Positions 20,664 to 50,948 of a stretch of 64,000 nt of DNA are shown here, one piece after another (within the stretch, counting starts at the first letter, position 1; each line of letters begins with the position of its first letter). Where the stretch lies: NCBI RefSeq assembly GCF_051903065.1, contig NZ_CP178438.1. One strand, written 5' to 3'. The notes under the pieces are model-generated. The model searched no databases and was not told the origin of the DNA. It saw only the letters and a list, made by a program, of their open reading frames with translations. The translations under genes and the position numbers were made by a program. Source of the DNA: Escherichia coli (GTDB lineage Bacteria > Pseudomonadota > Gammaproteobacteria > Enterobacterales > Enterobacteriaceae).

Positions 20664-20734
20664 GTTCATAAGATTGAGGGGGGGGTGACCGGGAAAATGT
20701 AGACATGTAGTGCCTAATCACCCCAGTTCAAACC

Positions 20735-20762
20735 CATCCGCATCCCGCCATGCCGGAAACTT
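20735..20762. repeat. 28-bp copy of the yafV 3' end (direct repeat with 23283-23310)
   Basis: CATCCGCATCCCGCCATGCCGGAAACTT is identical at both sites. Confidence 0.8.
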
Positions 20763-20920
20763 CACACTGTACTCCCAGGGAAAAATCACGTAATGCTGCT
20801 TTTTTTGTACTAAATAATTCGCATTTTATGTTCAATAATTGAGGTGTTCCTTATTACCTAAAGCTGTTTTTCATTGCTTATACATGATCAAATACTCATT
20901 GCATAATTAAGGGGGGCAAA

Positions 20921-21684
20921 ATGGAACTTAAAAAATTGATGGAACATATTTCTATTATCCCCGATTACAGGCAAGCCTGGAAAGTGGAACATAAATTGCC
21001 AGATATTCTATCTGTTAACTATTTGCGCCGTTATTTCTGGTGCATAATGCTGGGAAGATATAGAGGATTTGGGGAAACACATCCCGATTTTTTGAAGTGA
21101 TATGGTGATTTTGAAAATGGTATTCCTGTTCACGATATCATTGCCAGAGTTGTATCCTGTATCAGTCCTGAAAAATTTCATGAGTGCTTTATTAACTGGA
21201 TGCGTGACTGTCATTCTTCAGATGATAAAGACGTCATTACAATTGATGGAAAAACGCTCCGGCACTCTTATGATAAAAGTCGTCACAAGGGAGCAATTTA
21301 TGTCATTAAAATCCGTCTTCATATTGTTTGCATGTCTCTGATGAATTTATTGATTTTACGTTTGAATGGAAAGGGCTGAAGAAATTATGCATGGCAGCCT
21401 CATTTCGCTCAATAATAGCAGAACAAAAGAAAAATCCCGAAATGACGGTCAGATATTATAGCATTTCTGCTGATTTAACCGCAGAGAAGTTCGCCACAGC
21501 GAACCGAAATCACTGGCAAGTGGAGAATAAATTGCACTGGCATCTGGACGTGGTAATGAATAAAGACGACTTCAAAATAAGAAGAGGAAATGCAGCAGAA
21601 TTATTTTCAGGGATACCGAAGATCGCTATTAATATTTTAACGAAAGATAAGATAATCAAGGCAGGGGCAAGATGTAAGATGTGA
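20921..21684 (+). pseudogene. ISAs1-family (H-repeat-associated) transposase pseudogene with internal deletion and stops
   Basis: [26 protein letters not shown]... N-terminus, in-frame stop, and C-terminal part (...[11 protein letters not shown]...[11 protein letters not shown]...) in three broken frames. Confidence 0.75.
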
Positions 21685-21912
21685 AAAGCAGCTGCGGACA
21701 GAGACTACCTCGCGTCAGTCCTTGCGGGGGCGGGCTTTCGTAATCTTGTTCTGCAAGGGATGATAAAAAGTGCAACTTTATTCCACGCAGCTATTTAGAC
21801 AGCGTACAGTAAACAAACGAAAGTTGTTATTTCAATGGTCAGGGCAAGAGCATGAAGTGTTTACTACACACTATGCTCTTGTCCTGGAGTCAGGTCTTGT
21901 TTGGAGGGATAA

Positions 21913-22416
21913 ATGGTAGATATTGTCGAGGCCGATAAAACGGATATTTATTTCATTCAGGAGAGTGTTTATGGTAAAATCGGGCTGCCAGCTTTTGGTA
22001 ATACAATAGGACCATCTGCACAGCAGGTTGTTAAAAAGGTATTCGCTGTCGTTAAAGAACGAGATAAGACACATGCAAAACAGAGATTATTGTTGGAATA
22101 TAATGGTAACAAACTCTGGATGAATGCTATTGATGGCAGTGAAGCTATCCTACCAATAGAATTTTCTAAGCGATACGAACTTTCATTATTCAATACTACT
22201 AATTTTGGAGAAGATCCTTTTCCTGATGTTAATTTATATAATAATATGAAATCAAGTTTTTTTGTAAGGTTTGGTGGAACATCCCATCCCGAGGCTTGGG
22301 CTATTTATAATGCAAGTACGAAAGAGGTTAAATATATAGAAACTGCAAGAGAAATTGATAAAATATTCAGTGATTTTAACTTGAGTGGTACATTGCCAAT
22401 TCACATTGGTCAATGA
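21913..22416 (+). CDS. Hypothetical protein (AT-rich, unknown function)
   Basis: 167-aa ORF with GGAGGG RBS; no family recognised. Confidence 0.5.
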   Translation: MVDIVEADKTDIYFIQESVYGKIGLPAFGNTIGPSAQQVVKKVFAVVKERDKTHAKQRLLLEYNGNKLWMNAIDGSEAILPIEFSKRYELSLFNTTNFGEDPFPDVNLYNNMKSSFFVRFGGTSHPEAWAIYNASTKEVKYIETAREIDKIFSDFNLSGTLPIHIGQ

Positions 22417-22482
22417 TTTTTTAAATTGTGTGATTAAATAATTGAACATTAGTGATGATTTATAGCATCATTATTCTATAAC

Positions 22483-22995
22483 ATGAATAAACGGATTGAA
22501 TGTGTTATGTTAAAAATGAGTTTATACGTAATAATATTGTTATTTTCCTTTCAGATTAGTGCAGCCATTACTAGCAAGGAAAGTGAGGTTGTTTCACCAT
22601 TATTAATGGATGTTAATTCTTCACTAACAATGCAAAATATTTCTGAATTATCCACATCATCGGAACCATCGCAACAGGGGGTATTTCCTGTAATATGTAC
22701 TCGACTTCATCCTGGCTCCGTAATGAAACGCCAGTTATTAACCGGCTGGGGGCCTGTTTTTATAATTGGTGATGATCCTTTTTCTCTGCGCTGGATGAGT
22801 GAACATCTGGAGATCCTTAAATCGCTAAATGCCCTTGGTTTGGTTGTTAATGTTGAATCAGTAGAACGAATGGAGGTATTACAGCAGCGGGCTGATGGGT
22901 TATTGTTATTGCCAGTTATCTGCGATAATTTCGTGCAAACTCTGCAATTAAATGCTTATCCGGTATTAATCACAGAGATGGAAATATCACAATGA
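22483..22995 (+). CDS. Hypothetical secreted protein (signal peptide)
   Basis: 170-aa ORF; N-terminal hydrophobic signal MSLYVIILLFSFQISAAIT; AT-rich. Confidence 0.5.
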   Translation: MNKRIECVMLKMSLYVIILLFSFQISAAITSKESEVVSPLLMDVNSSLTMQNISELSTSSEPSQQGVFPVICTRLHPGSVMKRQLLTGWGPVFIIGDDPFSLRWMSEHLEILKSLNALGLVVNVESVERMEVLQQRADGLLLLPVICDNFVQTLQLNAYPVLITEMEISQ

Positions 22996-23017
22996 TTAAT
23001 AACATAATTACTGCAAA

Positions 23018-23222
23018 TAATATCGTAATTTTGAAAATGGTAATCCTGTTCACGGCACCATAATTAGAGTTATGTCTTGTATCCGTTCAGTATAATTTCA
23101 CGAATGCTTTATTAACTGGATGCGTGACTGCCATTCATCAAATGACAAAGACGTCATCGCGATTGATGGAAAAGCACTTCCACACTCCTATGATAAAAGT
23201 GGTCGCAGGAGAGCGGGCTTTC
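23018..23222 (+). pseudogene. Second ISAs1-family transposase fragment (about 200 bp, direct repeat of 21095-21300)
   Basis: YGDFENG...[24 protein letters not shown]... segment is duplicated at both locations. Confidence 0.7.
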
Positions 23223-23268
23223 GTAGTCTTCCCCGACTCTCCCCAGCCCTAAACACAACACCCACTCA

Positions 23269-24045
23269 CTACAACCTAAACTCATCCGCATCCCGCCATG
23301 CCGGAAACTTATCGCGATATTCCCTTAACACCGCCATCGACAGCTCCGCATCAATGCGCGTTGCCTGATGCGCGTCGGCAGTAGCGATAATCTCGCCCTG
23401 TGGATTAATCACCCGGCTGTCACCGCGATAATGGCAGCCGTTGCCATCGCTGCCGACGCGATTGCATCCCGCCACATACGCCTGATTCTCAATCGCGCGG
23501 GCCGTCAGCAATGCCTGCCAGTGCAGAGAGCGCGGAGCAGGCCAGTTGGCAACGTAGATGGCGAGGTCATAATCGTTGAGATTGCGCGACCACACCGGAA
23601 AACGTAAGTCGTAGCACACCAACGGCAAAATACGCCAGCCGCGCCATTCCACAATCACTCGCGCATTGCCCGCTTTATAATGCAGATGCTCATCTGCCAT
23701 GCGGAACAGATGACGCTTATCATAAAAATGTACCGTGCCGCCCGGCTCAACCAGCAAAAAGCGGTTAACCGAACCAGACTCCGTTTGTAATGCAACACTG
23801 CCTGCAATCAGCGCATTGCACTGCTGCGCTTTGGCTGTCATCCAGTTCACTACGTCATCTTGTGCTAGCGACGAAGCAGCCGCTTCCATGGCAAAGCCGC
23901 TGGTAAACATCTCCGGTAGAACGATCACATCGCGCCCGGTAATACCTTCCAGTTGACGATCAAAATGACGCAGGTTGGCAGGGCCATCCATCCACACCAG
24001 TGGTTGCTGCAAAAGCGTAATCTTCAAACCAGGCACGGTGTACAA
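23269..24045 (-). CDS. yafV: Carbon-nitrogen hydrolase family protein YafV
   Basis: 258-aa ORF, nitrilase-superfamily sequence; true start may be 3 codons internal. Confidence 0.9.
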
Positions 24046-24189
24046 CTCCTTTATGCGAAGGGTTTTATAACTTTAACACCTTATCAGGCAGTTGCCTTAG
24101 CGCAGAATAAATTGATAACAAATGCTGATATTGGAAATATCTGATTTGCAAATTATCGTGTTATCGCCAGGCTTTAGGAGGTTAATAAC

Positions 24190-24663
24190 ATGGGCAGGAT
24201 AAGCTCGGGAGGAATGATGTTTAAGGCAATAACGACAGTCGCCGCTCTGGTCATCGCCACCAGTGCAATGGCGCAGGATGATTTAACCATTAGTAGCCTT
24301 GCAAAGGGCGAAACCACCAAAGCTGCGTTTAATCAGATGGTGCAAGGGCATAAGCTGCCTGCCTGGGTGATGAAAGGCGGTACTTATACCCCTGCACAAA
24401 CCGTAACGTTGGGAGATGAGACGTATCAGGTGATGAGCGCGTGCAAACCGCATGACTGTGGCTCGCAACGTATCGCTGTGATGTGGTCCGAGAAATCTAA
24501 TCAGATGACGGGGCTGTTCTCGACTATTGATGAGAAAACGTCGCAAGAGAAACTCACCTGGTTGAATGTGAACGATGCGCTTTCGATTGATGGTAAAACG
24601 GTGCTGTTCGCGGCGTTGACCGGCAGCCTGGAAAACCATCCGGATGGCTTTAATTTTAAATAA
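24190..24663 (+). CDS. ivy: Inhibitor of vertebrate lysozyme
   Basis: 157 aa, signal peptide, CKPHDC motif. Confidence 0.95.
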   Translation: MGRISSGGMMFKAITTVAALVIATSAMAQDDLTISSLAKGETTKAAFNQMVQGHKLPAWVMKGGTYTPAQTVTLGDETYQVMSACKPHDCGSQRIAVMWSEKSNQMTGLFSTIDEKTSQEKLTWLNVNDALSIDGKTVLFAALTGSLENHPDGFNFK

Positions 24664-24677
24664 TTAGCGGATAAAGA

Positions 24678-24699
24678 AACGGAGCCTTTCGGCTCCGTT
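24678..24699. terminator. Bidirectional terminator hairpin between ivy and fadE
   Basis: AACGGAGCC-tttc-GGCTCCGTT between convergent genes. Confidence 0.7.
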
Positions 24700-24705
24700 A
24701 TTCAA

Positions 24706-27150
24706 TTACGCGGCTTCAACTTTCCGCACTTTCTCCGGCAACTTTACCGGCTTCGTCGCCAGCTCTTCCGGATCAAAGTCATCAACGTTAATACTGCGCA
24801 GACGGCTTTCTTCCGCTTTCACCAGAATAGCGGCTTCATCTTTATCAATCAGCCCCTTCGCCAGCGCGTTGTGCGCCAGTTCATCCAGACGGGTAAATGG
24901 CAGATTTTTACCCAGCTCTTTACAGATCCGCTGATGAATCGGGTCGGCGGCAATCACATCCACCAACGCCTCTTCCAGTAAACCAACCGGGTTATGCTCG
25001 CTTGGCGTCAGGTACTGACCGCGACCAATACGTGAACGAGTGGCGTTCGGCACTTGTAAAATCTTCGCCACTTTATGATCCAGCTTGTCAGACGGTGCCA
25101 GATAATGACGTCCGGTCGGGAAGATCACCACATTCAGCAGCCCGGCAACCACGCGGTTCGGGAAGTTTTGCAGTAAATCGTCCATCGCCTGTTCTGCCTG
25201 ATACAGCGCATCCTGTACGCCCCAGTGCACCAGCGGCAGATCGGCTTCATTACGGCCTTCGTCGTCATAACGCTTCAGAACGGCAGAGGCGAGGTAAAGC
25301 TGGCTTAAAATATCACCCAGACGTGCCGAGATACGCTCACGACGTTTCAGGCTGCCGCCCAGCACTGCCATCGAGACATCAGAAAGCAGGGCGAGGTTGG
25401 CGCTCAGGCGGTTCAGGTGCTGATAGTAGCGTTTAGTGGCATCGCCGGTTGGCGTGCTGCTGGTTAAACCGCGCGTCAGGCCCAGCCAGAAGCTGCGAAC
25501 TTTGTTGCTACCGACGTGACCGATATGTTTGAACAACAGTTTATCGAACGCGTTGACGTCATTGTTCTTCGCCGCTTCCATCTCTTCCAGCACGTACGGA
25601 TGGCAACGAATCGCTCCTTGTCCGAAGATCATCATGCTGCGGGTCAGAATGTTAGCCCCTTCAACGGTGATGGCAATCGGTGCGCCCTGGTAAGCACGCG
25701 CCAGGAAGTTGCTTTGCCCGAGCATAATGCCTTTACCGCCGGTAATATCCATCGCATCAATAATCGACTGCTGCCCGCGGTGGGTACAGTGATACTTAAC
25801 GATAGCCGACAGCACGGCAGGTTTTTCGCCGAGCATAATGCCGTAGGTAATCAGCGATGCCGCAGCATCCATTACATAAGCGTTCCCGGCAATACGCGCC
25901 AGCGGCTCTTCAATCCCTTCCATCTTACCGATAGAGATTTTGAACTGACGGCGAATGTGAGCATACGCGCCCGTTGCCAGCGCTACCGATTTCACGCCGC
26001 CGGTTGAGTTGGAAGGCAGGGTGATGCCGCGGCCTACCGAGAGGCACTCCACCAGCATCCGCCAGCCTTGCCCGGCCATTTTGGGTCCGCCGATGATGTA
26101 ATCGATCGGTACGAAGACATCTTTACCGCGCGTCGGTCCGTTCTGGAAAGGTACGTTCAGCGGGAAGTGGCGACGACCAATTTCCACGCCCGGCGTGGTG
26201 GTCGGGATCAGCGCACAGGTAATACCTAAATCTTCTGCACCACCCAGCAATTTTTCCGGGTCGGAGAGTTTAAACGCCAGACCAAGCACGGTCGCAATCG
26301 GTGCCAGCGTAATGTAGCGTTTGTTCCAGGTCAGACGCATCCCCAGCACCTGCTGGCCCTGCCATTCACCCATGCAGACAATCCCGGTATCCGGGATAGC
26401 GCCCGCATCGGAACCCGCTTCCGGGCTGGTTAGTGCAAAGCAAGGGATTTCCTGACCACGCGCCAGACGCGGCAGATAGTGATCTTTCTGCTCGTCAGTG
26501 CCGTAATGTTGCAGCAGCTCGCCCGGGCCTAATGAGTTCGGCACGCCGACGGTAATCGCCAGGATCCCGCTCACGCCGGAGAGTTTTTGCAGCACGCGAG
26601 ACTGGGCATAAGCCGAGAACTCCAGCCCGCCGTACTCTTTTTTGATGATCATCGCGAAGAAACGATGCTCTTTAAGGTACGCCCACAACTCCGGCGGCAG
26701 ATCCGCCAGCTCATGAGTAATCTGGAAATCATTCGCCATCCGGCAGGCTTCTTCTACCGGGCCGTCGAGAAACGCTTGCTCTTCAGCGGTCAGGCGCGGC
26801 TGCGGATAGTTATGCAGCTTTTTCCAGTCCGGCTTGCCCTGGAACAAGTCGCCCTCCCACCAGGTGGTGCCCGCATCAATCGCTTCTTTCTCAGTGCGCG
26901 ACATCGGCGGCATCACCTTACGGAAACCGCGAAATACCGGCGCGGAAATCATCGACTTACGCATAGGCGCAAAGTTAAATGGCACGAGGATAATGGCCAG
27001 AGGCACCAGTACCCACACCGACCACAGACCAGCAACGCCGAGGGCGGCTGTCCAGGCGAGCAAAATCAGACTGCTGATAAATAAGCTCACGCGGTGATAG
27101 AACAACGCGCCGAGCAGGACAACCGTAGCGAGAATACTCAAAATCATCAT
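24706..27150 (-). CDS. fadE: Acyl-CoA dehydrogenase FadE
   Basis: Track ORF is 840 aa; start trimmed to [11 protein letters not shown] (814 aa) by comparison with the known FadE N-terminus. Confidence 0.95.
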
Positions 27151-27389
27151 AACGAAAAGCCCCTTACTTGTAGGAGGTCTGACCACTTGTGATGATATGG
27201 TTGTAGTGGATGTAAAAACATTTAGCAATGTGTTTACAATATAATTACAACAAAGCTCACATTGTTGCTGTTTTTATCCGCACTTCAGGTCAAAAAGTCC
27301 TGGTCATAGCACCGGCCCGTACTTCTCGCTTTTGGCGGTATCCGGTACACTGCATTTTGTCTATTACATTTATGCTGAAGGATATCCTC

Positions 27390-27968
27390 ATGTACCAGGA
27401 TCTTATTCGTAACGAACTGAACGAAGCGGCGGAAACGCTGGCTAACTTTTTAAAAGATGACGCCAATATTCACGCCATTCAGCGCGCGGCGGTCCTGTTA
27501 GCAGACAGCTTTAAAGCCGGTGGCAAAGTGCTTTCCTGCGGCAACGGCGGTTCCCATTGCGACGCTATGCACTTTGCCGAAGAGTTGACCGGTCGCTACC
27601 GTGAAAACCGTCCGGGCTACCCGGCGATTGCTATTTCTGACGTTAGTCATATTTCATGCGTCGGTAACGATTTCGGTTTCAATGATATTTTCTCCCGTTA
27701 CGTTGAAGCGGTAGGTCGCGAAGGCGATGTACTGCTGGGGATCTCCACCTCCGGTAACTCTGCAAACGTGATCAAAGCGATCGCAGCGGCGCGTGAGAAG
27801 GGAATGAAAGTGATCACCCTGACCGGTAAAGACGGCGGCAAAATGGCTGGCACGGCGGATATCGAAATTCGCGTACCGCACTTTGGTTATGCCGACCGCA
27901 TTCAGGAGATTCACATTAAAGTGATCCATATCCTGATCCAGTTGATTGAAAAAGAGATGGTTAAGTAA
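27390..27968 (+). CDS. gmhA: Phosphoheptose isomerase GmhA
   Basis: 192 aa from the internal start [17 protein letters not shown]... Confidence 0.95.
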
Positions 27969-28130
27969 GTCTGGCGTAGGCCGGATAAGACGTTTACGCC
28001 GCATCCGGCAATTGTGCACCGATGCCTGATGCGACGCTGACGCGTCTTATCATGCCTACAAATCTGTACGCGAACCGTAGGCCGAATAATGCGTTCACGC
28101 CGCATCCGACCTGAAAATTCTTAAATCAAT
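27969..28130. repeat. REP/BIME cluster
   Basis: Repeated palindromic units GCCGGATAAG...GCCGCATCCGGCA and GCCTGATGCGACGCTGACGCGTCTTATCA. Confidence 0.85.
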
Positions 28131-28176
28131 CTTCGCCGGGGGCCATGCGCTCCCGCTGTTGTGGAGGTTACCCATG

Positions 28177-28941
28177 TGCGAATTGCTCGGGATGAGCGCC
28201 AACGTCCCTACCGATATCTGCTTTAGTTTCACCGGTCTGGTGCAGCGTGGTGGTGGAACCGGGCCACATAAAGATGGCTGGGGCATTACCTTTTACGAAG
28301 GTAAAGGCTGTCGCACATTTAAAGATCCGCAACCCAGCTTTAACTCACCTATCGCCAAACTGGTCCAGGACTACCCGATAAAATCCTGTTCGGTGGTGGC
28401 TCATATTCGCCAGGCTAATCGGGGCGAGGTGGCGCTGGAAAATACTCACCCATTTACCCGCGAGTTATGGGGGCGTAACTGGACTTATGCCCATAACGGA
28501 CAACTGACGGGCTACAAATCACTGGAAACCGGCAACTTCCGCCCGGTAGGCGAAACCGACAGTGAAAAAGCCTTCTGCTGGCTCCTGCATAAATTAACGC
28601 AGCGTTACCCGCGCACACCGGGCAACATGGCGGCGGTATTTAAATATATCGCCTCACTGGCGGATGAACTGCGGCAGAAGGGCGTTTTCAACATGCTGCT
28701 TTCGGACGGGCGCTATGTAATGGCGTATTGCTCGACTAATTTACACTGGATCACCCGCCGCGCGCCGTTTGGCGTGGCAACGTTGCTGGATCAGGATGTG
28801 GAAATCGACTTCAGCTCGCAGACCACACCGAATGATGTGGTCACGGTGATTGCGACACAGCCGCTGACGGGCAATGAAACCTGGCAAAAAATTATGCCAG
28901 GCGAATGGCGCTTATTTTGCCTCGGGGAGCGTGTAGTTTGA
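28177..28941 (+). CDS. yafJ: Class II glutamine amidotransferase-like protein YafJ
   Basis: MCELLGMS... N-terminal Cys nucleophile; 255 aa. Confidence 0.9.
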
Positions 28942-29652
28942 TGCCAGCTGTGGTTGCACAACTTCGTGGCTTAACGGCTTGCTGACCACGTAACGACCAT
29001 TGACCACAGAAACGGTCGGTGGCTTACGGGTTTGCTCAAAGTAGTCGTAACCCGGCTTCAGTTGCTCCCAGAAGTCCTTAAAGTTGGAATATTTGTGGCG
29101 CTTCATATTAGCGTCGGTCATGCGGAACGGGTAAATGCTCACTTGCACGCTCGGCTGACCAAATACCAGTGCGCCAGTAACGAACTGGAAAATCTCGTCA
29201 ATGCCCTGATTGGTCATCGCGTAGCAGCCGATGGAAACACAATCGCCGTGGATCATCAGGTATTTCCCTTCATAACCATGCGCACGGTCATAGGCATTGG
29301 GGAAACCAATATTAATCGCTTTGTAGTAACGGCTGTCTGGTTTTAACTGATTACGCTGGACGCTATAAAACCCTTCCGGGCTTTTGAAATCGCCCTGACG
29401 CTGTTTTGGCCCTAAGCCGCCGGAATATTTACAGATTTTATAGCTGTCGAGCAGTTGATATTGCTCGCCCATTTTGACGTAGAGATCGAGCGTACGTTCT
29501 TCCTTGAAGATCTGGATGTAGACAGGGGATCCCATCAACTGCTGCTTATACTCTTTGCTCACTGGCGTGGTCGAGCTACTGCTGCCCAGCAAACCGGCAA
29601 ACGAAACGCACGGGATCAACAACATCGCAAGAATTAATGCGATTTTACGCAT
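28912..29652 (-). CDS. yafK: L,D-transpeptidase-like periplasmic protein YafK
   Basis: 246 aa with signal peptide, YkuD-type. Confidence 0.9.
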
Positions 29653-29807
29653 ACTGCTTATTCCTTGATAAAACGGTTACACACGCCAGGACGGCAAAAT
29701 GGATCCCAAATCGGAATAGTCTGGATTTGGAAGGCTCACATTATCACCAAAAGAGTTTTACGCAAGCCTGTCGGCGCAGGGTTTACAAATTTCATCGGAA
29801 GCGGGCT

Positions 29808-30086
29808 TTACCCAAAGAGCGCCGCGTGAGTTCCAGTTCTCTCAAATCGTAAAAGTTTATCGGTAAGTTTGTAAATCAGGAGCCAGTCCGGTTCGACATG
29901 AGCATCGCGATAACCTTTCCATGAACCTTGCAGCGGGTGGTCTTTATAAACAGCTGGAATCGGTAAAGTATTATTGATAAGAAGCGTCATAAGATATTTC
30001 AATTTATTCATATCCTTATGACGCTTTTGTGCAAGTTTTACATCCTTTGAAAATTGTCCCGAGTATTCAATATCCCTTTGAATCAT
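29808..30086 (-). CDS. yafQ: Type II toxin YafQ (RelE-like mRNA interferase)
   Basis: 92 aa, matches YafQ. Confidence 0.95.
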   Translation of the reverse strand: MIQRDIEYSGQFSKDVKLAQKRHKDMNKLKYLMTLLINNTLPIPAVYKDHPLQGSWKGYRDAHVEPDWLLIYKLTDKLLRFERTGTHAALFG

Positions 30087-30088
30087 AT

Positions 30089-30349
30089 TTAAATTCCTAA
30101 TTTATCAAATAAATCATCGGCGTCTTTGGCCTTATGAACATCAACGCCAGCTTCGCTGTTTTTGATTGATTGAATGGTTAATTGATTAGGCTCGCGTAAA
30201 TCAAACGGCAATGCCTTTTCACGCGCGACCTTTGTGAGGGTTATGCGAACCAGGTCAGAGATGGTCAGCCCCATCCCGGCCAGTACGTCCGCCGCCTGAT
30301 TCTTCAGATCTTCATCGATTCGGGCGCGAACAAACGCGTTAGCAGCCAT
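30089..30349 (-). CDS. dinJ: Antitoxin DinJ
   Basis: 86 aa, matches DinJ; 2-bp spacing to yafQ. Confidence 0.95.
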   Translation of the reverse strand: MAANAFVRARIDEDLKNQAADVLAGMGLTISDLVRITLTKVAREKALPFDLREPNQLTIQSIKNSEAGVDVHKAKDADDLFDKLGI

Positions 30350-30365
30350 TGGGGTATCTCCTGTG

Positions 30366-30381
30366 CTGTATATTTATTCAG
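30366..30381. promoter_or_regulatory. LexA box upstream of dinJ
   Basis: CTGTATATTTATTCAG (CTGT-N8-CAG) 17 bp upstream of the dinJ start. Confidence 0.7.
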
Positions 30382-30558
30382 CTTGAATTGTAGCTCAAAT
30401 GAGCAACAGCGACAATCTATGAGTAATTTAATAAACGGATGTTTTTACATAATTAACTGAAATATATTTATTAATTTTATAATAATGGTTTATTAAGTTT
30501 GTTCAGGTACGGGCCGGGATACACTGTAACATCAATGCATGACCAGCCATTATTCAAT

Positions 30559-31308
30559 ATGTCCTTGCCATCGATTCCATCCTTTGTATTGTCGGGATTA
30601 CTGTTGATTTGTTTGCCGTTTTCTTCATTTGCCAGCGCCACCACATCACATATCTCTTTCAGCTACGCCGCCCGCCAGCGGATGCAAAACCGTGCGCGTT
30701 TATTAAAACAGTACCAAACCCATCTGAAAAAGCAGGCCAGCTATATTGTGGAAGGCAATGCCGAAAGCAGAAGGGCGCTGCGCCAGCACAACCGCGAACA
30801 GATAAAACAGCATCCAGAATGGTTTCCTGCGCCGCTCAAGGCGAGTGACAGACGCTGGCAGGCGCTGGCGGAAAACAACCACTTTTTAAGCAGCGACCAT
30901 TTGCATAACATTACCGAAGTGGCGATTCACCGCCTGGAGCAGCAGCTTGGCAAGCCTTACGTCTGGGGCGGCACGCGGCCTGATAAAGGCTTTGACTGTA
31001 GCGGGTTGGTTTTTTATGCCTACAACAAGATCCTCGAGGCGAAGCTCCCGCGTACGGCTAATGAGATGTATCACTACCATCGGGCAACGATTGTGGCGAA
31101 TAACGACCTGCGCCGGGGAGATTTGCTGTTTTTCCATATCCACAGCCGCGAGATTGCCGACCATATGGGGGTGTATCTGGGCGATGGGCAATTTATCGAG
31201 TCGCCGCGTACGGGGGAAACCATTCGGGTAAGCCAGTTAGCAGAACCTTTCTGGCAGGATCATTTTTTAGGCGCGCGCCGGATTTTGACGGAAGAGACGA
31301 TTTTGTAG
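30559..31308 (+). CDS. yafL: NlpC/P60-family peptidase YafL
   Basis: NlpC/P60 Cys-His core (DCSGLVFYAY...HMGVYLG); start placed at MSLPSIPSF. Confidence 0.85.
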   Translation: MSLPSIPSFVLSGLLLICLPFSSFASATTSHISFSYAARQRMQNRARLLKQYQTHLKKQASYIVEGNAESRRALRQHNREQIKQHPEWFPAPLKASDRRWQALAENNHFLSSDHLHNITEVAIHRLEQQLGKPYVWGGTRPDKGFDCSGLVFYAYNKILEAKLPRTANEMYHYHRATIVANNDLRRGDLLFFHIHSREIADHMGVYLGDGQFIESPRTGETIRVSQLAEPFWQDHFLGARRILTEETIL

Positions 31309-31395
31309 GACGGATAAGGCATTCACGCCGCATCCGGCAGTTGTACGCAGGTGCCTGATGCGACGCTGGCGCGTCTTATCATGCCTACGAGCCCG
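31309..31395. repeat. REP elements (left of rayT)
   Basis: GGATAAGGCATTCACGCCGCATCCGGCA ... GCCTGATGCGACGCTGGCGCGTCTTATCATGCCTAC. Confidence 0.85.
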
Positions 31396-31483
31396 CGAAT
31401 ATTTGCGAGCCGCTTTCCCGATATAAAACAACCTCATTGCCAACCTTTCCTTTTCTTCTTACCGTTGAGAAAAAGGAGTCGCT

Positions 31484-31981
31484 ATGTCTGAATATCGTCG
31501 TTATTACCTCAAGGGGGGAAGCTGGTTTTTCACGGTGAATTTACGGAATCGTCGAAGCCAACTTTTGACTACCCAGTACCAGACGCTCCGTAACGCCATT
31601 ATTAAAGTTAAGCGAGCCAGACCTTTTGAAATTAATGCCTGGGTAGTTTTGCCGGAGCATATGCATTGCATATGGACATTACCCGAAAGCGATGATGATT
31701 TTTCCTCCCGCTGGCGGGAGATTAAAAAGCAGTTCACCCATGCTTGCGGATTGAAAAATATCTGGCAACCGCGTTTTTGGGAGCACGCCATTCGCAATAC
31801 CACAGATTATCGCCATCATGTTGATTATATTTATATAAATCCAGTGAAACATGGCTGGGTAAAGCAGGTGAGAGATTGGCCATTCTCAACGTTCCATCGC
31901 GATGTCGCGCGAGGGTTATATCCCATCAATTGGGCGGGAGACATAACGGATTTGAGCGCTGGGGAGCGTATCATTTTATAA
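31484..31981 (+). CDS. rayT: REP-associated tyrosine transposase RayT (TnpA_REP)
   Basis: 165 aa, matches RayT/YafM; flanked by REP clusters. Confidence 0.9.
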   Translation: MSEYRRYYLKGGSWFFTVNLRNRRSQLLTTQYQTLRNAIIKVKRARPFEINAWVVLPEHMHCIWTLPESDDDFSSRWREIKKQFTHACGLKNIWQPRFWEHAIRNTTDYRHHVDYIYINPVKHGWVKQVRDWPFSTFHRDVARGLYPINWAGDITDLSAGERIIL

Positions 31982-31990
31982 TTTTGCGCT

Positions 31991-32100
31991 GGTGCCGGAT
32001 GTGCTTACGCTTATCCGGCCTACGAATCGTGCTTTAACGGTAGGCCGGATAAGGCGTTCACGCCGCATCCGGCAATTGTGCACCAATGCCGGATGCGCCC
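31991..32100. repeat. REP elements (right of rayT)
   Basis: Inverted REP pair GCCGGATAAG...GCCGCATCCGGCA. Confidence 0.85.
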
Positions 32101-44903: not shown

Positions 44904-44979
44904 GCCGATATAGCTCAGTTGGTAGAGCAGCGCATTCGTAATGCGAAGGTCGTAGGTTCGACTCCTATTATCGGCACCA
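44904..44979 (+). tRNA. thrW: tRNA-Thr (anticodon CGT)
   Basis: GCCGATATAGCTCAGTTGGTAGAGCAGCGCATTCGTAATGCGAAGGTCGTAGGTTCGACTCCTATTATCGGCACCA; cloverleaf with CGT anticodon. Confidence 0.95.
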
Positions 44980-44993
44980 TTTAAATCAATAAG

Positions 44994-46157
44994 TTACACA
45001 TCATTAGTACCTTCCTTATTTTTTGACTGGGACAAATTTGGGACCGATGGGTTCAGGATCGAGTCTATTTGCCGTGCGTGTTCGGTAAGGTGATTAGGTG
45101 CAAGGTGAGCATATCGACGAACCATTTCGATAGACTCCCAGCCTCCCATTTCCTGTAACACTGACAACGGGACTCCGGCTTGAACTAGCCAACTTGCCCA
45201 GGTGTGTCTCAAGTCGTGAAATCTGAAATCATCAATACCAGCCCGTCTCAGCGCCGCTTTCCAGGCTGTGTTTGCGTCATACCGCATCTTCCTTACTGTT
45301 GGCGCTTTCGTTCCGTCTGGTTTGGTACAGCTTTCCTTGTACACAAATACCCAACGGTGATGATTCCCGATTTGTTTTTTCAAAACGCGACATGCAGTAT
45401 CATTCAGCGCAACGCCAATTGCGCGGTTTGATTTACTCTCTTCCGGGTTTATCCATGCCACCCGGCGCTGCATGTCTATTTGTTGCCATTCAAGGTTGAT
45501 GATGTTCGAGCGTCTTAAGCCTGTTGCCAGTGCAAATTCAACAACAGACTTTAATGGCTCCGGACATTCATCAATCAGCCTTTGTGCTTCATGGGGCTCC
45601 AGCCAGCGGATCCGTTTATTCTTTGGTTGAGGCACTTTAATAATTGGTGCCTTATCCAGCATTTTCCATTCACGCTCTGCGGCTCTTAGTAGGGCCTTTA
45701 TAAATGAAAGATGCGTAGCCTTCGTTGCAACGGACGCTGGTTTTGGCGTGTATTCTGGAACAGGTTTCCCTTTTTTTCTGCATGCTTCTGCCCTGAGTCT
45801 CCAGTTTTCCTCATGACGCCGGTTCGTCATTTTCTGCATTGCTGAATAAATTTTTGATTCAGTAATGTCTCTTAGTTGCATTCCTGCGAAATGTTGAAGC
45901 CAGAATCCGATCCGGCTTTTGTCATCGTCCAGTGATTTTTTATGTGCTTTCTCTTCAAGCCACCTGACACACGCTTCCTCGAACGTTATATCAGGTATTT
46001 CACCAAGTTTGCTGACCCGCCATGCTTCAGCCTTTAGCTTGTCATGGAGTTCTGTCGCCTGCCTTTTGTCCTTTGTTCCAAGAGACTGTTTAAATCTTTT
46101 ACCGTTCGGCAATGTGAAACTGGCGTACCATATTTCACCTCTGCGGAAGAGTGACAT
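44994..46157 (-). CDS. int: Phage tyrosine integrase (P22-type, thrW-specific)
   Basis: 387 aa, [31 protein letters not shown]...; C-terminal catalytic domain ([10 protein letters not shown]...RYAH); directly adjacent to the tRNA 3' end. Confidence 0.93.
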
Positions 46158-47705: not shown

Positions 47706-48530
47706 TCAGGCGGTGAAAGTACCAATAAAGGTTTCTACTTTGCTGTCCTTGAATTTCTCAACAAGCAGATCACGAAATTCGTTAGCCATTTCTTCCTGCA
47801 CCGCCTCCAGCTGAATAATGCGCAGAACCAGTACAGGACGATCGCCAGTGATAATACTGAGGCGTAATTTAAACGGACGTTCTTTCAGACCTTCAAACGG
47901 AACGCATTTAAATTCAAATGCCACTGGCATAATGTCTTTGGTCTTCGCTTCGACAGACTCCATCAGGGAGCGTTTGCCGCTGAAGTCATTATCTTCAAAA
48001 TCAGCGGTCTGGTTTGCTTCAATCGTGATTTTACGGACAGCCGCAGCCGCTTTTGTTGCCTGAATAGCGTCACCATTAGCATCAAAGCCCACAAGATAGT
48101 CGGCCCAGTCTTCAATCCATTCTGCTAGTGACTTCTGGGAGTTACGCTCGCCGTTAACAGACAACAGAGCAGAGAACGGTGCTGTCTTTTTCAGTTTGAG
48201 TGTGGCGGTGTTATCTGCGTGACCTGGTTCATCAATAGTACCCAGGTTAAGCACACTGACGGCACGCATATTATCAGCATCGATAAAGCAGCGGGTGCCT
48301 TCATCTGCAAGATCTTTAGAATAACGGGTAAAGTCATCGATGCTGGCAGTGGAAAGCGCACCACGGAAACGGAAGCGATTTAAATTAAATTTTTCCAGAT
48401 CATGAATGCGGAAATTCTCAGGCAATGCCACAGCATCGGCACCAATCTTACTGATAATTTCATTAACACCCTGAGCAGAAATAAGGGCATGGATTTGATT
48501 AATTGCGGTTGCGTCTAAGTTCTGAGACAT
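47706..48530 (-). CDS. Phage protein, YfdQ-like (DUF2303 family)
   Basis: 274-aa ORF resembling prophage YfdQ. Confidence 0.6.
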
Positions 48531-48595
48531 AATAAGTCCTCACTATATAAAGATATTCAGTGATGAGATAAATAATCAGTTAATTAAAAACGATA

Positions 48596-48958
48596 TTAAC
48601 GACCTGCTGCGCGGAGTTTTCCGTCAGGTTCACCGGCAAGAGTCAGTAACTGTCCCTGGTCTTCCTGCAGAATAGTCAGGCGACCACCGCGATTGACATA
48701 CATCGGCGTTTCGGTGGTGTCTTCTTCGGAAATTTTCCCGCGGTTAGTCGGGCGAACATATGAGAGTTTGTGTTTGATTTTCACTCGGTTCTCATCAAAC
48801 GGTTCGATTTCCAGGTTGAGCGAGACCTTACCTTTGGTTTTCGTGTTCATCACACCGGAAGCGACTTCACTGAGAACTGCGCCGATTTTGGTTTCAAATA
48901 CGCCGCCGTCCAGCTCCCCGATAAATGCCTGCACATCAGTACTGCGTTCGCTAGCCAT
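48596..48958 (-). CDS. Phage protein, YfdP-like
   Basis: Start at ATG 48958 (MASERSTDVQ...) preceded by AGGAG; the track's longer ORF upstream is rejected. Confidence 0.55.
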   Translation of the reverse strand: MASERSTDVQAFIGELDGGVFETKIGAVLSEVASGVMNTKTKGKVSLNLEIEPFDENRVKIKHKLSYVRPTNRGKISEEDTTETPMYVNRGGRLTILQEDQGQLLTLAGEPDGKLRAAGR

Positions 48959-49426
48959 TTTGCTGCTCCTCATCATATCGACCCTGCAAGGTCGGTTAGT
49001 TTCTCCACAAAACAGAGAAGAACACCTGCGGTGACTGCCGCCCGGATGGATTGGGTTATGAGCCCGTCGTCCGGTGATGCTCTTCTCTGTTTTGTAAAAA
49101 GGACGGTACCAGCCGGAAGCAAGAGTACAAGCTGGTACCGCCAAGACTACACACAGCATAAAGTTGTGGTGCCGGGTGCCTCCCGGTGCCTGGCGAAGGT
49201 TGCACACCAGGCGGGTGGGTATCCACAGAAGGTCGACTGTCAGCCTCAACCTTAACCCGCGTGCGCTGAGCCGCATTCACCACAACGCTAAGGATTCTCT
49301 CTGGTTGAAAATACTTAGCTGTTATGTGCCTGCTTTTAGCCACATCAGGCGAGGTGGACCTAGTTATTCCCCAACAACAAGGATTCGGTTAATCTGGTTA
49401 TCCCCAACAACGCAAAAGGAAAAGAA

Positions 49427-49861
49427 ATGTCCGGTAATATCTATACGCTGTACAAATCCCACTGTGAAAATGTTGGAAAGTATCGGGGCATTGAAATCAG
49501 TGGGGTAGTGTCATCAGTCGAAATAAGCAAAGTTGAATCAAGGGCAACATTACTTACTCTTTTGGACCTTGTCTTACATGAGCACCGGAAGAAATTCGGC
49601 ACTCCCTATAATCAGTTGAATGGGAAAAAGGCTCTGGTTCACCTTATTCTGATGAAGCATCACTGGATGCCAAAACAGATTAATGAGATGAAATTTGATG
49701 AACTTCTTCTTTCAATTCAGGATGAACTCACACTTGATAAAATAAGCGTAACCGCCCAGAAATTTTTAGATTATCGAGACTGGAGATCACAAATTCATCA
49801 CTTTGATGATTTTGACGAAAATGAATGGGATCCTAATTTGTCTGCACAATATCTAAAGTAA
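49427..49861 (+). CDS. Hypothetical protein (AT-rich moron, opposite to the leftward operon)
   Basis: 144-aa ORF with AAAGGAAAAG RBS region; tandem 34-nt-spaced repeats upstream and a terminator downstream. Confidence 0.55.
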   Translation: MSGNIYTLYKSHCENVGKYRGIEISGVVSSVEISKVESRATLLTLLDLVLHEHRKKFGTPYNQLNGKKALVHLILMKHHWMPKQINEMKFDELLLSIQDELTLDKISVTAQKFLDYRDWRSQIHHFDDFDENEWDPNLSAQYLK

Positions 49862-50039
49862 CATCCTGTGATAAAACCGTGATTTCCTGATCCAGTTTTT
49901 TTAAGGAGTCTATTGTTTCCTGTCGATAAGACAGCACTTCACGAAGCTGGTTTATAGCTGCCAGCTTCTTTGTCATCCACTCATAAATTTCCTCATCTGT
50001 GTAGCCAGGCGCGACGATTTTGGGTTCTGTTTTGTGCAT
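49833..50039 (-). CDS. Hypothetical small protein, first gene downstream of the putative pL
   Basis: 68 aa from ATG 50039 (MHKTEPKIVAPGYTDEEIYEW...) with AGGAG 7 nt upstream; 3' end overlaps the convergent 49427 gene by 29 bp. Confidence 0.4.
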   Translation of the reverse strand: MHKTEPKIVAPGYTDEEIYEWMTKKLAAINQLREVLSYRQETIDSLKKLDQEITVLSQDVTLDIVQTN

Positions 50040-50188: not shown

Positions 50189-50227
50189 GTTGTTTCGCTT
50201 GGGTACATTATGTATCTCAAAGGTACA
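50189..50227 (-). promoter_or_regulatory. Putative pL/OL: leftward promoter with GTAC-containing operator half-sites
   Basis: Minus-strand TTGACA (50223-50218), 17-nt spacer, ATAATG (50200-50195); GGTACAT motifs at 50191 and 50211 resemble the OR palindromes. Confidence 0.5.
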
Positions 50228-50233
50228 TTGTCA

Positions 50234-50257
50234 AGTATAAAAAAACCTGCCGAAGCA
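50234..50257 (-). terminator. Terminator of the repressor transcript
   Basis: Minus-strand AACCTGC-ttcg-GCAGGTT followed by TTTTTTT, just downstream of the cI stop. Confidence 0.6.
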
Positions 50258-50273
50258 GGTTCATAAACATTGA

Positions 50274-50948
50274 TTAGGCTTTGATTTTGTATCTTCTTGG
50301 TTTTCCTGAGAAAATCACTGTACCAATTATAGAGCAATTACCGTTGATCTTAATGTAAGGCTCAGGCCAGTTTGGGTTTAACGCTTTGAGATAACGCTGT
50401 GTCCCATCTTCTATCAACCTTTTGAAGGTGGTTTCGCCTGTATCGTGCATCAATGCAATAACGTCGTCACCGTGGCAGGCAGGTACTTCAGGATCGACAA
50501 AAATCATGTCTCCCGGGCGGTACTCATCAATCATTGAATCACCTATCACCCGCAAGATATAAGTCATTTCCCCACAGGGTACAGGGCAGGGATACGTTTC
50601 TGCTGTGCTCAAATCAACCTCAGAATATCCAACTTCTTTCCATGCTCCGGCCTGTACCCATGATATGACAGGGACTAATGTGATTTGTTTATTAGTGATT
50701 GAAACATCAGGTTTTTTTGTGATGTTCGTTGTCTGGTGTTCTTGATCGAGCCATCCGACAGGCAGGTCGAAACATTTTTCGATGTGTCGTGCCATGCTGT
50801 CACCGATATTTTTAGTAGCACCATCTCCCATAAACCTGCTGGTCTGGGTTGGCTCGCGATCAATCATAGTGGCAAAGGAAGAATTCCCGCCAACACCATC
50901 TCTCAGTTTTCTGGCGTTAGACCGCCGGATGTCATGGATTGTTTTCAT
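50274..50948 (-). CDS. cI: Phage CI-type repressor (HTH plus S24 LexA-like peptidase domain)
   Basis: 224 aa; C-terminal S24 motifs (GDSM...K); ATG has no upstream RBS, consistent with a leaderless transcript. Confidence 0.85.
   Translation of the reverse strand: MKTIHDIRRSNARKLRDGVGGNSSFATMIDREPTQTSRFMGDGATKNIGDSMARHIEKCFDLPVGWLDQEHQTTNITKKPDVSITNKQITLVPVISWVQAGAWKEVGYSEVDLSTAETYPCPVPCGEMTYILRVIGDSMIDEYRPGDMIFVDPEVPACHGDDVIALMHDTGETTFKRLIEDGTQRYLKALNPNWPEPYIKINGNCSIIGTVIFSGKPRRYKIKA

Follow-up and report, generated by a model that had tools for sequence, protein, structure and literature searches.

The stretch analysed here, which we call the window, is a 64,000-nt segment of Escherichia coli contig NZ_CP178438.1 (GCF_051903065.1). 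Our subject is a block at 48959-49426, flanked by a minus-strand yfdP-like gene and by a plus-strand gene for a protein of 144 amino acids (aa; 49427-49861). A preliminary description had presented the block as 470 bp of hairpin-rich DNA without plausible open reading frame (ORF), and had offered three readings: a phage-encoded structured non-coding RNA, a set of terminators or processing sites for a leftward operon, or a recombination site. Our analysis confirms that the block is a real, conserved non-coding RNA locus, encoded on the minus strand and made of three modules (49001-49292). Its parts, from the 5' end of the RNA, are as follows.

49321-49357, minus: conserved upstream element CCACCUCGCCUGAUGUGGCUAAAAGCAGGCACAUAAC, with no significant fold.
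49287-49319, minus: 5' stem-loop GCUAAGUAUUUUC...GAGAAUCCUUAGC directly before the core, with 13-nt arms that are 85% complementary.
49157-49292, minus (136 nt): module 1, the core, a five-way-junction RNA of the STnc100/PasD superfamily, matched below threshold by Rfam and supported by our own model and by covariation.
49278-49286 with 49163-49171, minus: P1, the closing helix of module 1, GUUGUGGUG paired with CACCACAAC.
Within module 1, minus: P5 helix, CCGGG-AGGCA-CCCGG.
49142-49162, minus: conserved single strand UUUAUGCUGUGUGUAGUCUUG between core and terminator, predicted to be unpaired.
49095-49141, minus: module 2, a hairpin of the intrinsic-terminator type, 12 bp with a U bulge and a 17-nt loop, then UCCUUUUU.
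49001-49100, minus (100 nt): module 3, a three-way-junction RNA with a 25-bp stem (49007-49031 with 49071-49095).
Within module 3, minus: arm A, CCGGA...UCCGG, and arm B, GCGG-CAGUCA-CCGC, in the predicted fold.
48977-48996, minus: small hairpin ACCGACCUUGCAGGGUCGAU, past module 3 and ahead of the ribosome-binding site, not significant when folded alone (z -0.8).

An inverted-repeat search of the block recovered, in place, all three complementary segments that had been described. The arms of the longest, given as 13 bp, extend to 25 nt (49007-49031 and 49071-49095, 84% complementary), and this long hairpin is the stem of the three-way junction. The second is a perfect 10-bp pair, CGGTACCAGC/GCTGGTACCG (49104-49113 and 49131-49140, 100% complementary), and the third is CCGGG...CCCGG at 49173-49187. 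The G+C content is 0.52-0.59 over 48900-49300, against 0.35-0.47 in the flanks. The block does hold more structure than chance: the minus-strand fold of its 468 nt reaches -188.4 kcal/mol (z -6.08), which none of 100 dinucleotide shuffles equals, and the plus-strand fold has a z of -2.98. Folded piece by piece, the long hairpin has a z of -8.56, the terminator module of -3.64 and the core of -2.41. The upstream third (49293-49426, 134 nt) has no significant structure (z +1.0), so the structured part is about 290 nt (49001-49292) and not 470. This unstructured upstream stretch of some 130 nt, the minus strand, the kinship with STnc100 and DicF and the annotated ORFs are all new relative to the preliminary description. 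The element CCACCUCGCCUGAUGUGGCUAAAAGCAGGCACAUAAC recurs 5' of the cassette, or right before the terminator, in prophage e14, phiES15 and many IMG/VR loci, and the 5' stem-loop aligns to positions 1-30 of the STnc100 model. Homologues place a hairpin with another sequence where ACCGACCUUGCAGGGUCGAU sits.

The Rfam covariance-model search that had been suggested as a check returned a full-length match of the minus strand (49316-49093) to positions 1-206 of STnc100 (RF02076), with 43.4 bits and E 6.7e-7, below the gathering threshold of 47. We aligned 28 diverse cores, of canonical STnc100 and variant types, with plain MAFFT, so that the alignment was not fitted to any structure. In this alignment 92.6% of the cells are paired, against 36-45% when the partners are slid. 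Double changes occur in 17 of the 29 pairs, and the covariation score is 0.47, compared with at most 0.13 in the slid controls; none of 500 shuffles reaches the observed pairing or covariation score. P1 occurs in the compensatory versions CAUGGUG/CACCAUG, GUUGUGGUG/CACCACAAC and GAUGCGGUG/CACCGCAUC, P5 as CCGGG/CCCGG and CCUGG/CCAGG, and three pairs of P2 are flipped between subtypes. R1, the covariance model built from the alignment, finds one copy in the window, at 49157-49292 and on the minus strand only (95.9 bits, E 7e-26).

Canonical STnc100 and the variant of the window thus have a common covarying structure: they align over their full length, have the invariant junction nucleotides in common (GGUGAAU..., CACCGGGAGGCACCCGGCACC), and their five helices covary across both groups. 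Both are prophage-borne, lie in sense orientation and have an intrinsic terminator downstream. They differ in P2, where all three variable pairs of the window copy are flipped (C-G to G-C), and in the interiors of P3 and P4. They also differ in location, as the window copy is early-left and without its own promoter, whereas bona fide copies sit at a strong promoter between Q and holin genes. There the core starts at the promoter itself (TTGACx-17-TAAAT), with a Q-like antiterminator gene on one side, holin/endolysin genes on the other and a terminator downstream. These late-region phages span four PHROG families of Q (loci L016, L049, L015, L070, L080, L081 and L093), and in them STnc100 is a late-promoter leader RNA. 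We take its Q-holin position to be that of the lambda 6S/StxS late leader. With the STnc100 model, the late-region copies score 79-93 bits and the related early-left copies 29-41 bits. The comparison of early and late loci, together with R1 and the covariation, places the core in the STnc100 superfamily, as a divergent branch belonging to early operons. PasD, which is bound by Hfq in RIL-seq, has also been put in this superfamily (bioRxiv 10.64898/2026.05.13.724894). In enterohaemorrhagic E. coli (EHEC), canonical STnc100 copies are known as discrete RNAs of about 160-210 nt, one of them confirmed by Northern blot (PMC5331693).

Cores of this kind are widespread. Sub-threshold STnc100 matches, always in operon sense, lie in SfII, ST64B, e14, 118970_sal3, phiES15, P1, RCS47 and Qin. 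The core is just before kil in phiES15 (a Cronobacter phage), just before tciA in the ban operon of P1 and RCS47, and between dicF and dicB, in sense orientation, in Qin. The invariant motif, searched for in viral contigs, gave at least 120 core loci with clear subtypes. The P1 core (91.6 bits; L005 2402-2537) stands among tRNA genes and an annotated "dicF-like region" of the ban operon, as it does in P1-like plasmid prophages, and two weaker matches resembling module 3 (33 and 28 bits) lie just upstream of it. In some contigs (L030, L034, L036, L061 and L088) two STnc100 cores stand in tandem, exactly 484 nt apart.

The core is followed by the conserved single strand UUUAUGCUGUGUGUAGUCUUG, which we regard as the candidate seed of a DicF-like small RNA. 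Phages of E. coli, Cronobacter and Citrobacter preserve the segment GCUGUGUGUAGUCUU, as seen in the window, phiES15, phiNP and many IMG/VR loci, and Salmonella ST64B has a single-base difference (GCUGUGUGAAGUCUU). Module 2 then has the anatomy of an intrinsic terminator, a G+C-rich stem of -23 kcal/mol (the GGTACC hairpin) directly adjoined by a U-run (U5, 49096-49100); termination itself is a prediction. Hairpin and U-run are present in about 108 of 113 early-left loci, and their stems differ in sequence between homologues. The model of DicF (RF00039) gives 20.2 bits (E 0.058) at 49101-49155 on the minus strand, a sub-threshold score; the e14 copy reaches 28.5 bits and genuine DicF 76.7. The 5' arm of the terminator is identical to that of DicF at 20 of 22 positions. 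The position is also that of DicF, in an early-left operon, past a structured cassette and with a Rho-independent terminator at the end. The duplex of the window seed with the ftsZ ribosome-binding region has -32.2 kcal/mol, and 71% of shuffles are as good, in a crude test where DicF itself is only at the 8% level. Targeting of ftsZ in the manner of DicF was rejected on this crude test, as the complementarity does not rise above that of shuffles.

How does the block relate to the dicF locus itself? In the 113 early-left loci, which were compared because they share module 3, a helix GUUGUGG...CCACAAC encloses interiors that differ between phages. The interior is an STnc100-like core in 33 loci and an mEp460-type cassette, or one of a few others with a GGUGAAU-type start, in 19; the rest have other cassettes or none. 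One interior type matches, at 94% identity (112/119), the stretch of Qin that lies directly upstream of dicF. Because of these matches in interior and terminator arm, we regard the window block and the Qin dicF locus as alleles of one slot, composed of cassette, single strand and terminator. Both stand in an early-left operon under a cI/cro-like switch, with a cassette in the GUUGUGG...CAAC helix, a single strand and a terminator hairpin, and Qin likewise has an STnc100-like core. They differ in the single-stranded seed and in the loop, with no ftsZ complementarity above shuffles in the window, and the core precedes the terminator in the window but follows it in Qin. The 175-nt dicF-dicB spacer of Qin (L010 2337-2546) is indeed an STnc100-like five-way junction (R1, 104.9 bits) whose end is some 25 nt short of the dicB start codon. 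The 3' end of Qin DicF arises by termination (53 nt) or by an RNase III cut of read-through RNA (72 nt), about 19 nt beyond the terminator (bioRxiv 10.1101/2023.04.14.536235; PMC5069750). In our own mapping, the 72-nt end falls on the P1 5' strand of the Qin core. Dependence on Hfq and processing through RNase E and RNase III are established for Qin DicF only (bioRxiv 10.1101/2023.04.14.536235). In one IMG/VR locus (L218), the GUUGUGG/CCACAAC helix surrounds a tRNA D-arm (GUAGCUCAAUUGGUUAGAGC), a T-arm (CCGGGUUCGAGUCCUGG) and a large insert; ARAGORN calls no tRNA in this slot. These arm sequences suggest that the cassette slot may descend from a tRNA gene.

Module 3 is constrained as an RNA as well. 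Among 21 diverse homologues 96.6% of the cells are paired, against 41-54% in slid controls, and eight pairs show double changes. Scored with its covariance model, R2, the minus strand reaches 110 bits and the plus strand 36, and an Rfam search matched the module to no family. Since the terminator U-tract is part of its 5' arm, the 25-bp stem can form solely in transcripts that read through. The apex of arm A, CGGGCUCAUAACCC (49053-49066), is identical at 14 of 14 positions to nucleotides 29-42 of E. coli metZ tRNA-fMet, and the likeness to the anticodon stem-loop is 16/17 over positions 26-42. The apex, which in sequence is identical to this tRNA element, does not vary across the more than 100 loci retrieved, though the scan pattern itself held 11 of those 14 bases. 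No other 12-mer of the tRNA-fMet anticodon arm occurs in the window, where one unrelated T-arm 12-mer is present. ARAGORN found no tRNA in 48500-49600 or in homologues with either form of module 3, and the Rfam tRNA model gave no match even at E <= 10; a true tRNA or tmRNA was rejected on these two negatives. Late-region tRNA arrays contain the second form of module 3 (R2, 35-42 bits), which comes right after the CCA end of a tRNA-Arg and carries an acceptor-like stem of 6 bp, then GCCA. Our literature search found no paper describing a tRNA-fMet-like module. In the end, cross-prophage comparison, another of the checks that had been suggested, uncovered covariation in modules 1 and 3. Compensatory changes in two modules across diverse phages, strand-specific models and membership of one module in the STnc100 superfamily support the proposal of a phage structured non-coding RNA.

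The surroundings are those of a prophage. Next to a tRNA-Thr gene (44904-44976) stands an integrase gene (44994-46157, minus), and this boundary is a thrW-type prophage junction. The features that frame the block are these.

50274-50948, minus: gene of a cI-like repressor, with a terminator downstream at 50262-50243.
50207-50234, minus: probable pL, TTGACA-16-CATAAT, with 11 of 12 consensus matches, just past the terminator of the cI-like gene.
48966-48971, minus: Shine-Dalgarno sequence GAGGAG, seven bases before the yfdP-like ATG.
48596-48958, minus: yfdP-like gene of 120 aa, with its ATG at 48958 (PHROG 204, E 1e-49).

By its position, the promoter at 50234-50207 is probably pL. It is flanked by two ATGTACC repeats, and the region made up of repeats, cI terminator and promoter (50200-50262) may be the left operator. 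The block lies in the pL operon about 0.9 kb downstream, after a 73-aa gene and the oppositely oriented 144-aa gene. The first protein gene past it is the yfdP-like one, then come yfdQ- and yfdR-like genes, xis and int. The YfdP-like, YfdQ-like, 144-aa and 73-aa proteins all match PHROGs without assigned function. A promoter scan found no convincing minus-strand promoter closer to the block than pL, and the sole nearby promoter-like match (49673-49646, 9/12) is antisense inside the 144-aa gene. This gene (PHROG 5286) is itself antisense within the pL operon and has a terminator-like hairpin 3' of it on the plus strand (49943-49968), in what looks like the layout of a moron. Just upstream of it, a direct repeat UUGUUGGGGAWAAC (minus; CCCCAACAAC on plus) occurs twice, about 34 bp apart (49369-49416), and recurs in related loci (L176 and L231); it may be a regulator-binding site for the 144-aa gene. 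Elsewhere in the window, in its chromosomal part, naRNA4 (CssrE, a REP-type nucleoid-associated RNA) scores above the Rfam threshold at 27979-28056 and 31308-31385 on the plus strand. Other Rfam families at E <= 10 gave chance-level matches only (ftsZ-DE, 18 bits; Hairpin ribozyme, 14.5 bits). In ST64B (L001 5732-5920) and mEp460 (L003 5734-5922), matches to isrK and C4 antisense RNA exceed the Rfam thresholds, on the right side of the immunity region.

We assign a probability of about 0.6 to the following reading as a whole. The host element would be a lambdoid prophage of the SfV/e14 type, with the block in its early-left (pL) operon on the minus strand. The block would be a modular non-coding RNA locus of that operon, giving a terminated or processed RNA, with an STnc100-type domain and a DicF-like 3' module, and a gate downstream of it. 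This builds on the observed strand, structures and covariation, on the homology to STnc100 and to the dicF locus, and on the terminator anatomy and pL-operon position. The most likely function would be that of a terminated or processed small RNA combined with a read-through gate into yfdP-xis-int. Loss of the repressor would allow leftward transcription from pL (about 50200) into the block. In the nascent RNA, the 136-nt five-way junction would fold first, and the conserved single strand of 17-20 nt would be exposed next, followed by the strong hairpin and U5. Most polymerases would halt at U5 and release a stable transcript of roughly 200 nt. RNase E or RNase III could shorten this transcript to a DicF-like small RNA of some 70 nt, acting in trans through its single-stranded stretch. 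Polymerases that read through would make the 100-nt three-way junction, whose 25-bp stem takes in the terminator U-tract. This duplex would be a natural substrate of the RNase III type, splitting the RNA from the yfdP...xis-int message and setting the amount of that message made. In this scheme we infer the efficiency of termination, the processing, the Hfq dependence, the targets in trans and the biochemical role of the five-way junction. The proposal that the leftward operon has terminators or processing sites here is supported in part, on its first count by the hairpin and U-run in homologues and by the block's place inside the pL operon. On its second count it draws support from the RNase III and RNase E processing published for the homologous Qin locus (bioRxiv 10.1101/2023.04.14.536235; PMC5069750).

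Two known systems offer parallels. Small RNAs from 3' external transcribed spacers of tRNA operons (3'ETS, e.g., 3'ETS-leuZ) combine a structured RNA closed by an acceptor helix, a short single strand and the intrinsic terminator of the operon. The block has a predicted architecture of the same kind (compact closed RNA, single strand, terminator), but its upstream structure is not a recognisable tRNA. The sib and N-leader rIII sites of lambda are RNase III processing hairpins of lambdoid left operons, sib lying downstream of the genes it regulates. The long, near-perfect 25-bp duplex of the block, formed only upon read-through and ahead of xis-int, resembles them. It differs in that it is upstream of the regulated genes, is branched and carries a tRNA-fMet-like arm, and its cleavage is predicted only.

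Several observations count against this reading. No sigma-70 promoter of its own was found on the minus strand in 49293-49640, and the variant is known here from sequence alone. The scores for STnc100 (43.4 bits) and DicF (20.2 bits) stay under their gathering thresholds of 47 and 48, respectively. The seed differs from that of DicF and lacks ftsZ complementarity above shuffles, so that we found no target for it. The 17-nt terminator loop is unusually large, and a simple terminator scan did not flag the hairpin because this loop exceeds its 8-nt limit. Finally, a five-way junction with about 29 invariant nucleotides exceeds what a base-pairing small RNA needs, which points to some further function.

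An unlikely alternative is a leader acting purely in cis, with no RNA in trans. It would be an attenuator or insulator that silences yfdP...xis-int unless the polymerase is terminator-resistant, or a signal that stabilises or processes the message. The core is always in sense and ahead of genes, at 25-35 nt from the starts of dicB (Qin), tciA (P1) and kil (phiES15). Bona fide STnc100, starting at the late promoter between Q-like and holin genes with a terminator after it, fits such a leader too, as does the published RNase III cut at the base of the Qin core (PMC5069750). Yet the downstream genes are mutually unrelated, and the distance to the terminator or start codon runs from about 25 to more than 200 nt without any consistent expression platform. 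The prophage has no evident antiterminator partner, and its 73-aa protein in the position of N is in a PHROG without assigned function. A role in cis hardly accounts for the conserved single strand ahead of the terminator, and both STnc100 and PasD build up as discrete RNAs associated with Hfq (PMC5331693; bioRxiv 10.64898/2026.05.13.724894). Two special forms of leader were rejected. A riboswitch with an expression platform does not suit a distance and sequence from P1 to terminator or start that are not conserved. As for an antiterminator RNA like put, a search of the early region of HK022 (record 20000-32000) with R1 gave no match at E <= 1. The put RNA is likewise a structured sense-strand RNA near the head of terminator-containing phage operons, but it consists of two stem-loops rather than a five-way junction, and late-region cores coexist with four Q families.

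We hold it doubtful that the modules work without base-pairing, as tRNA-derived mimics or decoys. Module 1 would then be a relative of the cloverleaf and module 3 a mini-tRNA with an initiator anticodon arm. Their partners would be host factors that recognise tRNA, such as RNase P (processing of the punctuation type) or VapC-type nucleases that cut tRNA-fMet. The 14-nt match (16/17 when extended) includes the GGG/CCC stem, and its invariance, subject to the bases held by the scan pattern, agrees with mimicry. So do the second form of module 3, placed right behind a tRNA-Arg with its acceptor-like stem and GCCA, the D- and T-arm sequences of L218 inside the GUUGUGG/CCACAAC helix, and the location of the phage P1 copy amid tRNA genes. 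No linker separates P5 of the core from the 3' strand of helix P1, as in a T-arm, and the five-helix topology is like that of class-II tRNAs. Topology and neighbours hint at a descent from tRNA. That descent would, however, explain the likeness without present-day mimicry. ARAGORN and the Rfam tRNA model were negative, R2 misses real tRNA-fMet genes, and the form in the window has no CCA end. Slightly more speculative is a broader version, in which the modules are tRNA-derived mimics in early and late leaders of temperate enterobacterial phages, and the three-way junction displays a perfect anticodon arm of the initiator tRNA, serving as decoy or sensor. Host factors recognising tRNA-fMet, for example anticodon nucleases of the VapC/MvpT type, the 30S P-site with IF3, or MetRS, would be its partners. 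If true, such mimics would be an RNA-based device for counter-defence or translation takeover, and the swappable cassettes within the conserved acceptor-like helix a diversifying set of them.

A coding function, as a small YmfH-like protein or an N-terminally extended YfdP, is very improbable. The remark of the preliminary description that there is no plausible ORF calls for a correction: mechanical ORFs of 95-226 aa cross the block, among them, on the minus strand, one of 95 aa (49056-49343, GTG start) and one of 226 aa (48596-49276). Public records label them "hypothetical protein" or, in K-12 e14, YmfH; such features overlap the block in many genomes, and some EHEC STnc100 copies carry ribosome footprints (PMC5331693). 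The N-terminal halves of the 95-aa ORF and YmfH have about 35 residues in common, after which the two diverge in frame because of an indel. In the homologues of phiES15, P1, Qin and sal3 no stop-free stretch exceeds 65 aa, and the ORFs match no PHROG family. The variation is compensatory at the RNA level, with indels that are not multiples of three, and the yfdP-like gene has its own GAGGAG and ATG at 48958. The 95-aa ORF/YmfH was rejected as a protein gene for its unconserved frame and lack of a PHROG match, and in this sense we conclude, from the pattern of sequence change, that the block is effectively non-coding. Least probable of all is an element acting as DNA (recombination site, cruciform or origin-like site): the inverted repeats are long and phage mosaic joints fall at module borders, but exchange of RNA cassettes yields such joints too, only the minus strand tolerates G-U pairs, R2 reaches 110 bits there and 36 on the plus strand, R1 has 96 bits there and no match on the plus strand, and branched multi-helix folds are kept by compensatory change. 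The constraint is thus on RNA pairing, and with no att-like or crossover core repeats found, the recombination site of the preliminary description falls.

Of 5426 complete E. coli genomes, 2781 carry the block or parts of it. No annotation calls it an RNA: it is labelled "hypothetical protein", left blank or, in K-12, given as ymfH. Standard Rfam annotation misses it because the score is just under threshold. Phages Kati, SfIV and others carry it at 97-99.6% identity. It is mosaic, since some phages share only parts: SfII and SKA5 have 48990-49357, Stx2c phages and mEp460 have 48900-49144, and ST64B has 48995-49302 (79% identity). The e14 copy coincides with K-12 ymfH (L004 4002-4313; record 1200473-1200784), scoring 78.4 bits for the core and 89.3 for module 3, and ymfH is probably not a protein gene. 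Over-expression of ymfH has been listed as a trigger of RcaT, the toxin of retron-Sen2 (10.1101/2020.06.22.160242). If the ymfH clone makes an RNA and not a protein, this result needs re-reading.

STnc100 and DicF were already known. As far as the literature searched and Rfam show, the variant of the window, its equivalence to ymfH, the dicF-dicB spacer and the P1 ban-operon segment, the architecture of the cassettes and the tRNA-fMet-like module had not been described; our searches on RNase III sites and e14 small RNAs found nothing bearing on the block. One five-way-junction RNA unites STnc100/PasD, the Qin dicF-dicB spacer, ymfH of e14 and the ban-operon segment of P1. A canonical home as late-promoter leader between Q and holin genes gives a clearer frame for the function of STnc100, with an easy model in K-12. 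The dicF locus becomes one allele of a modular RNA slot in lambdoid early-left operons, whose interiors can be swapped. Finally, a widespread conserved fold outside Rfam, carrying an exact copy from the anticodon arm of the initiator tRNA, bears on phage tRNAs and on anticodon-nuclease defences.

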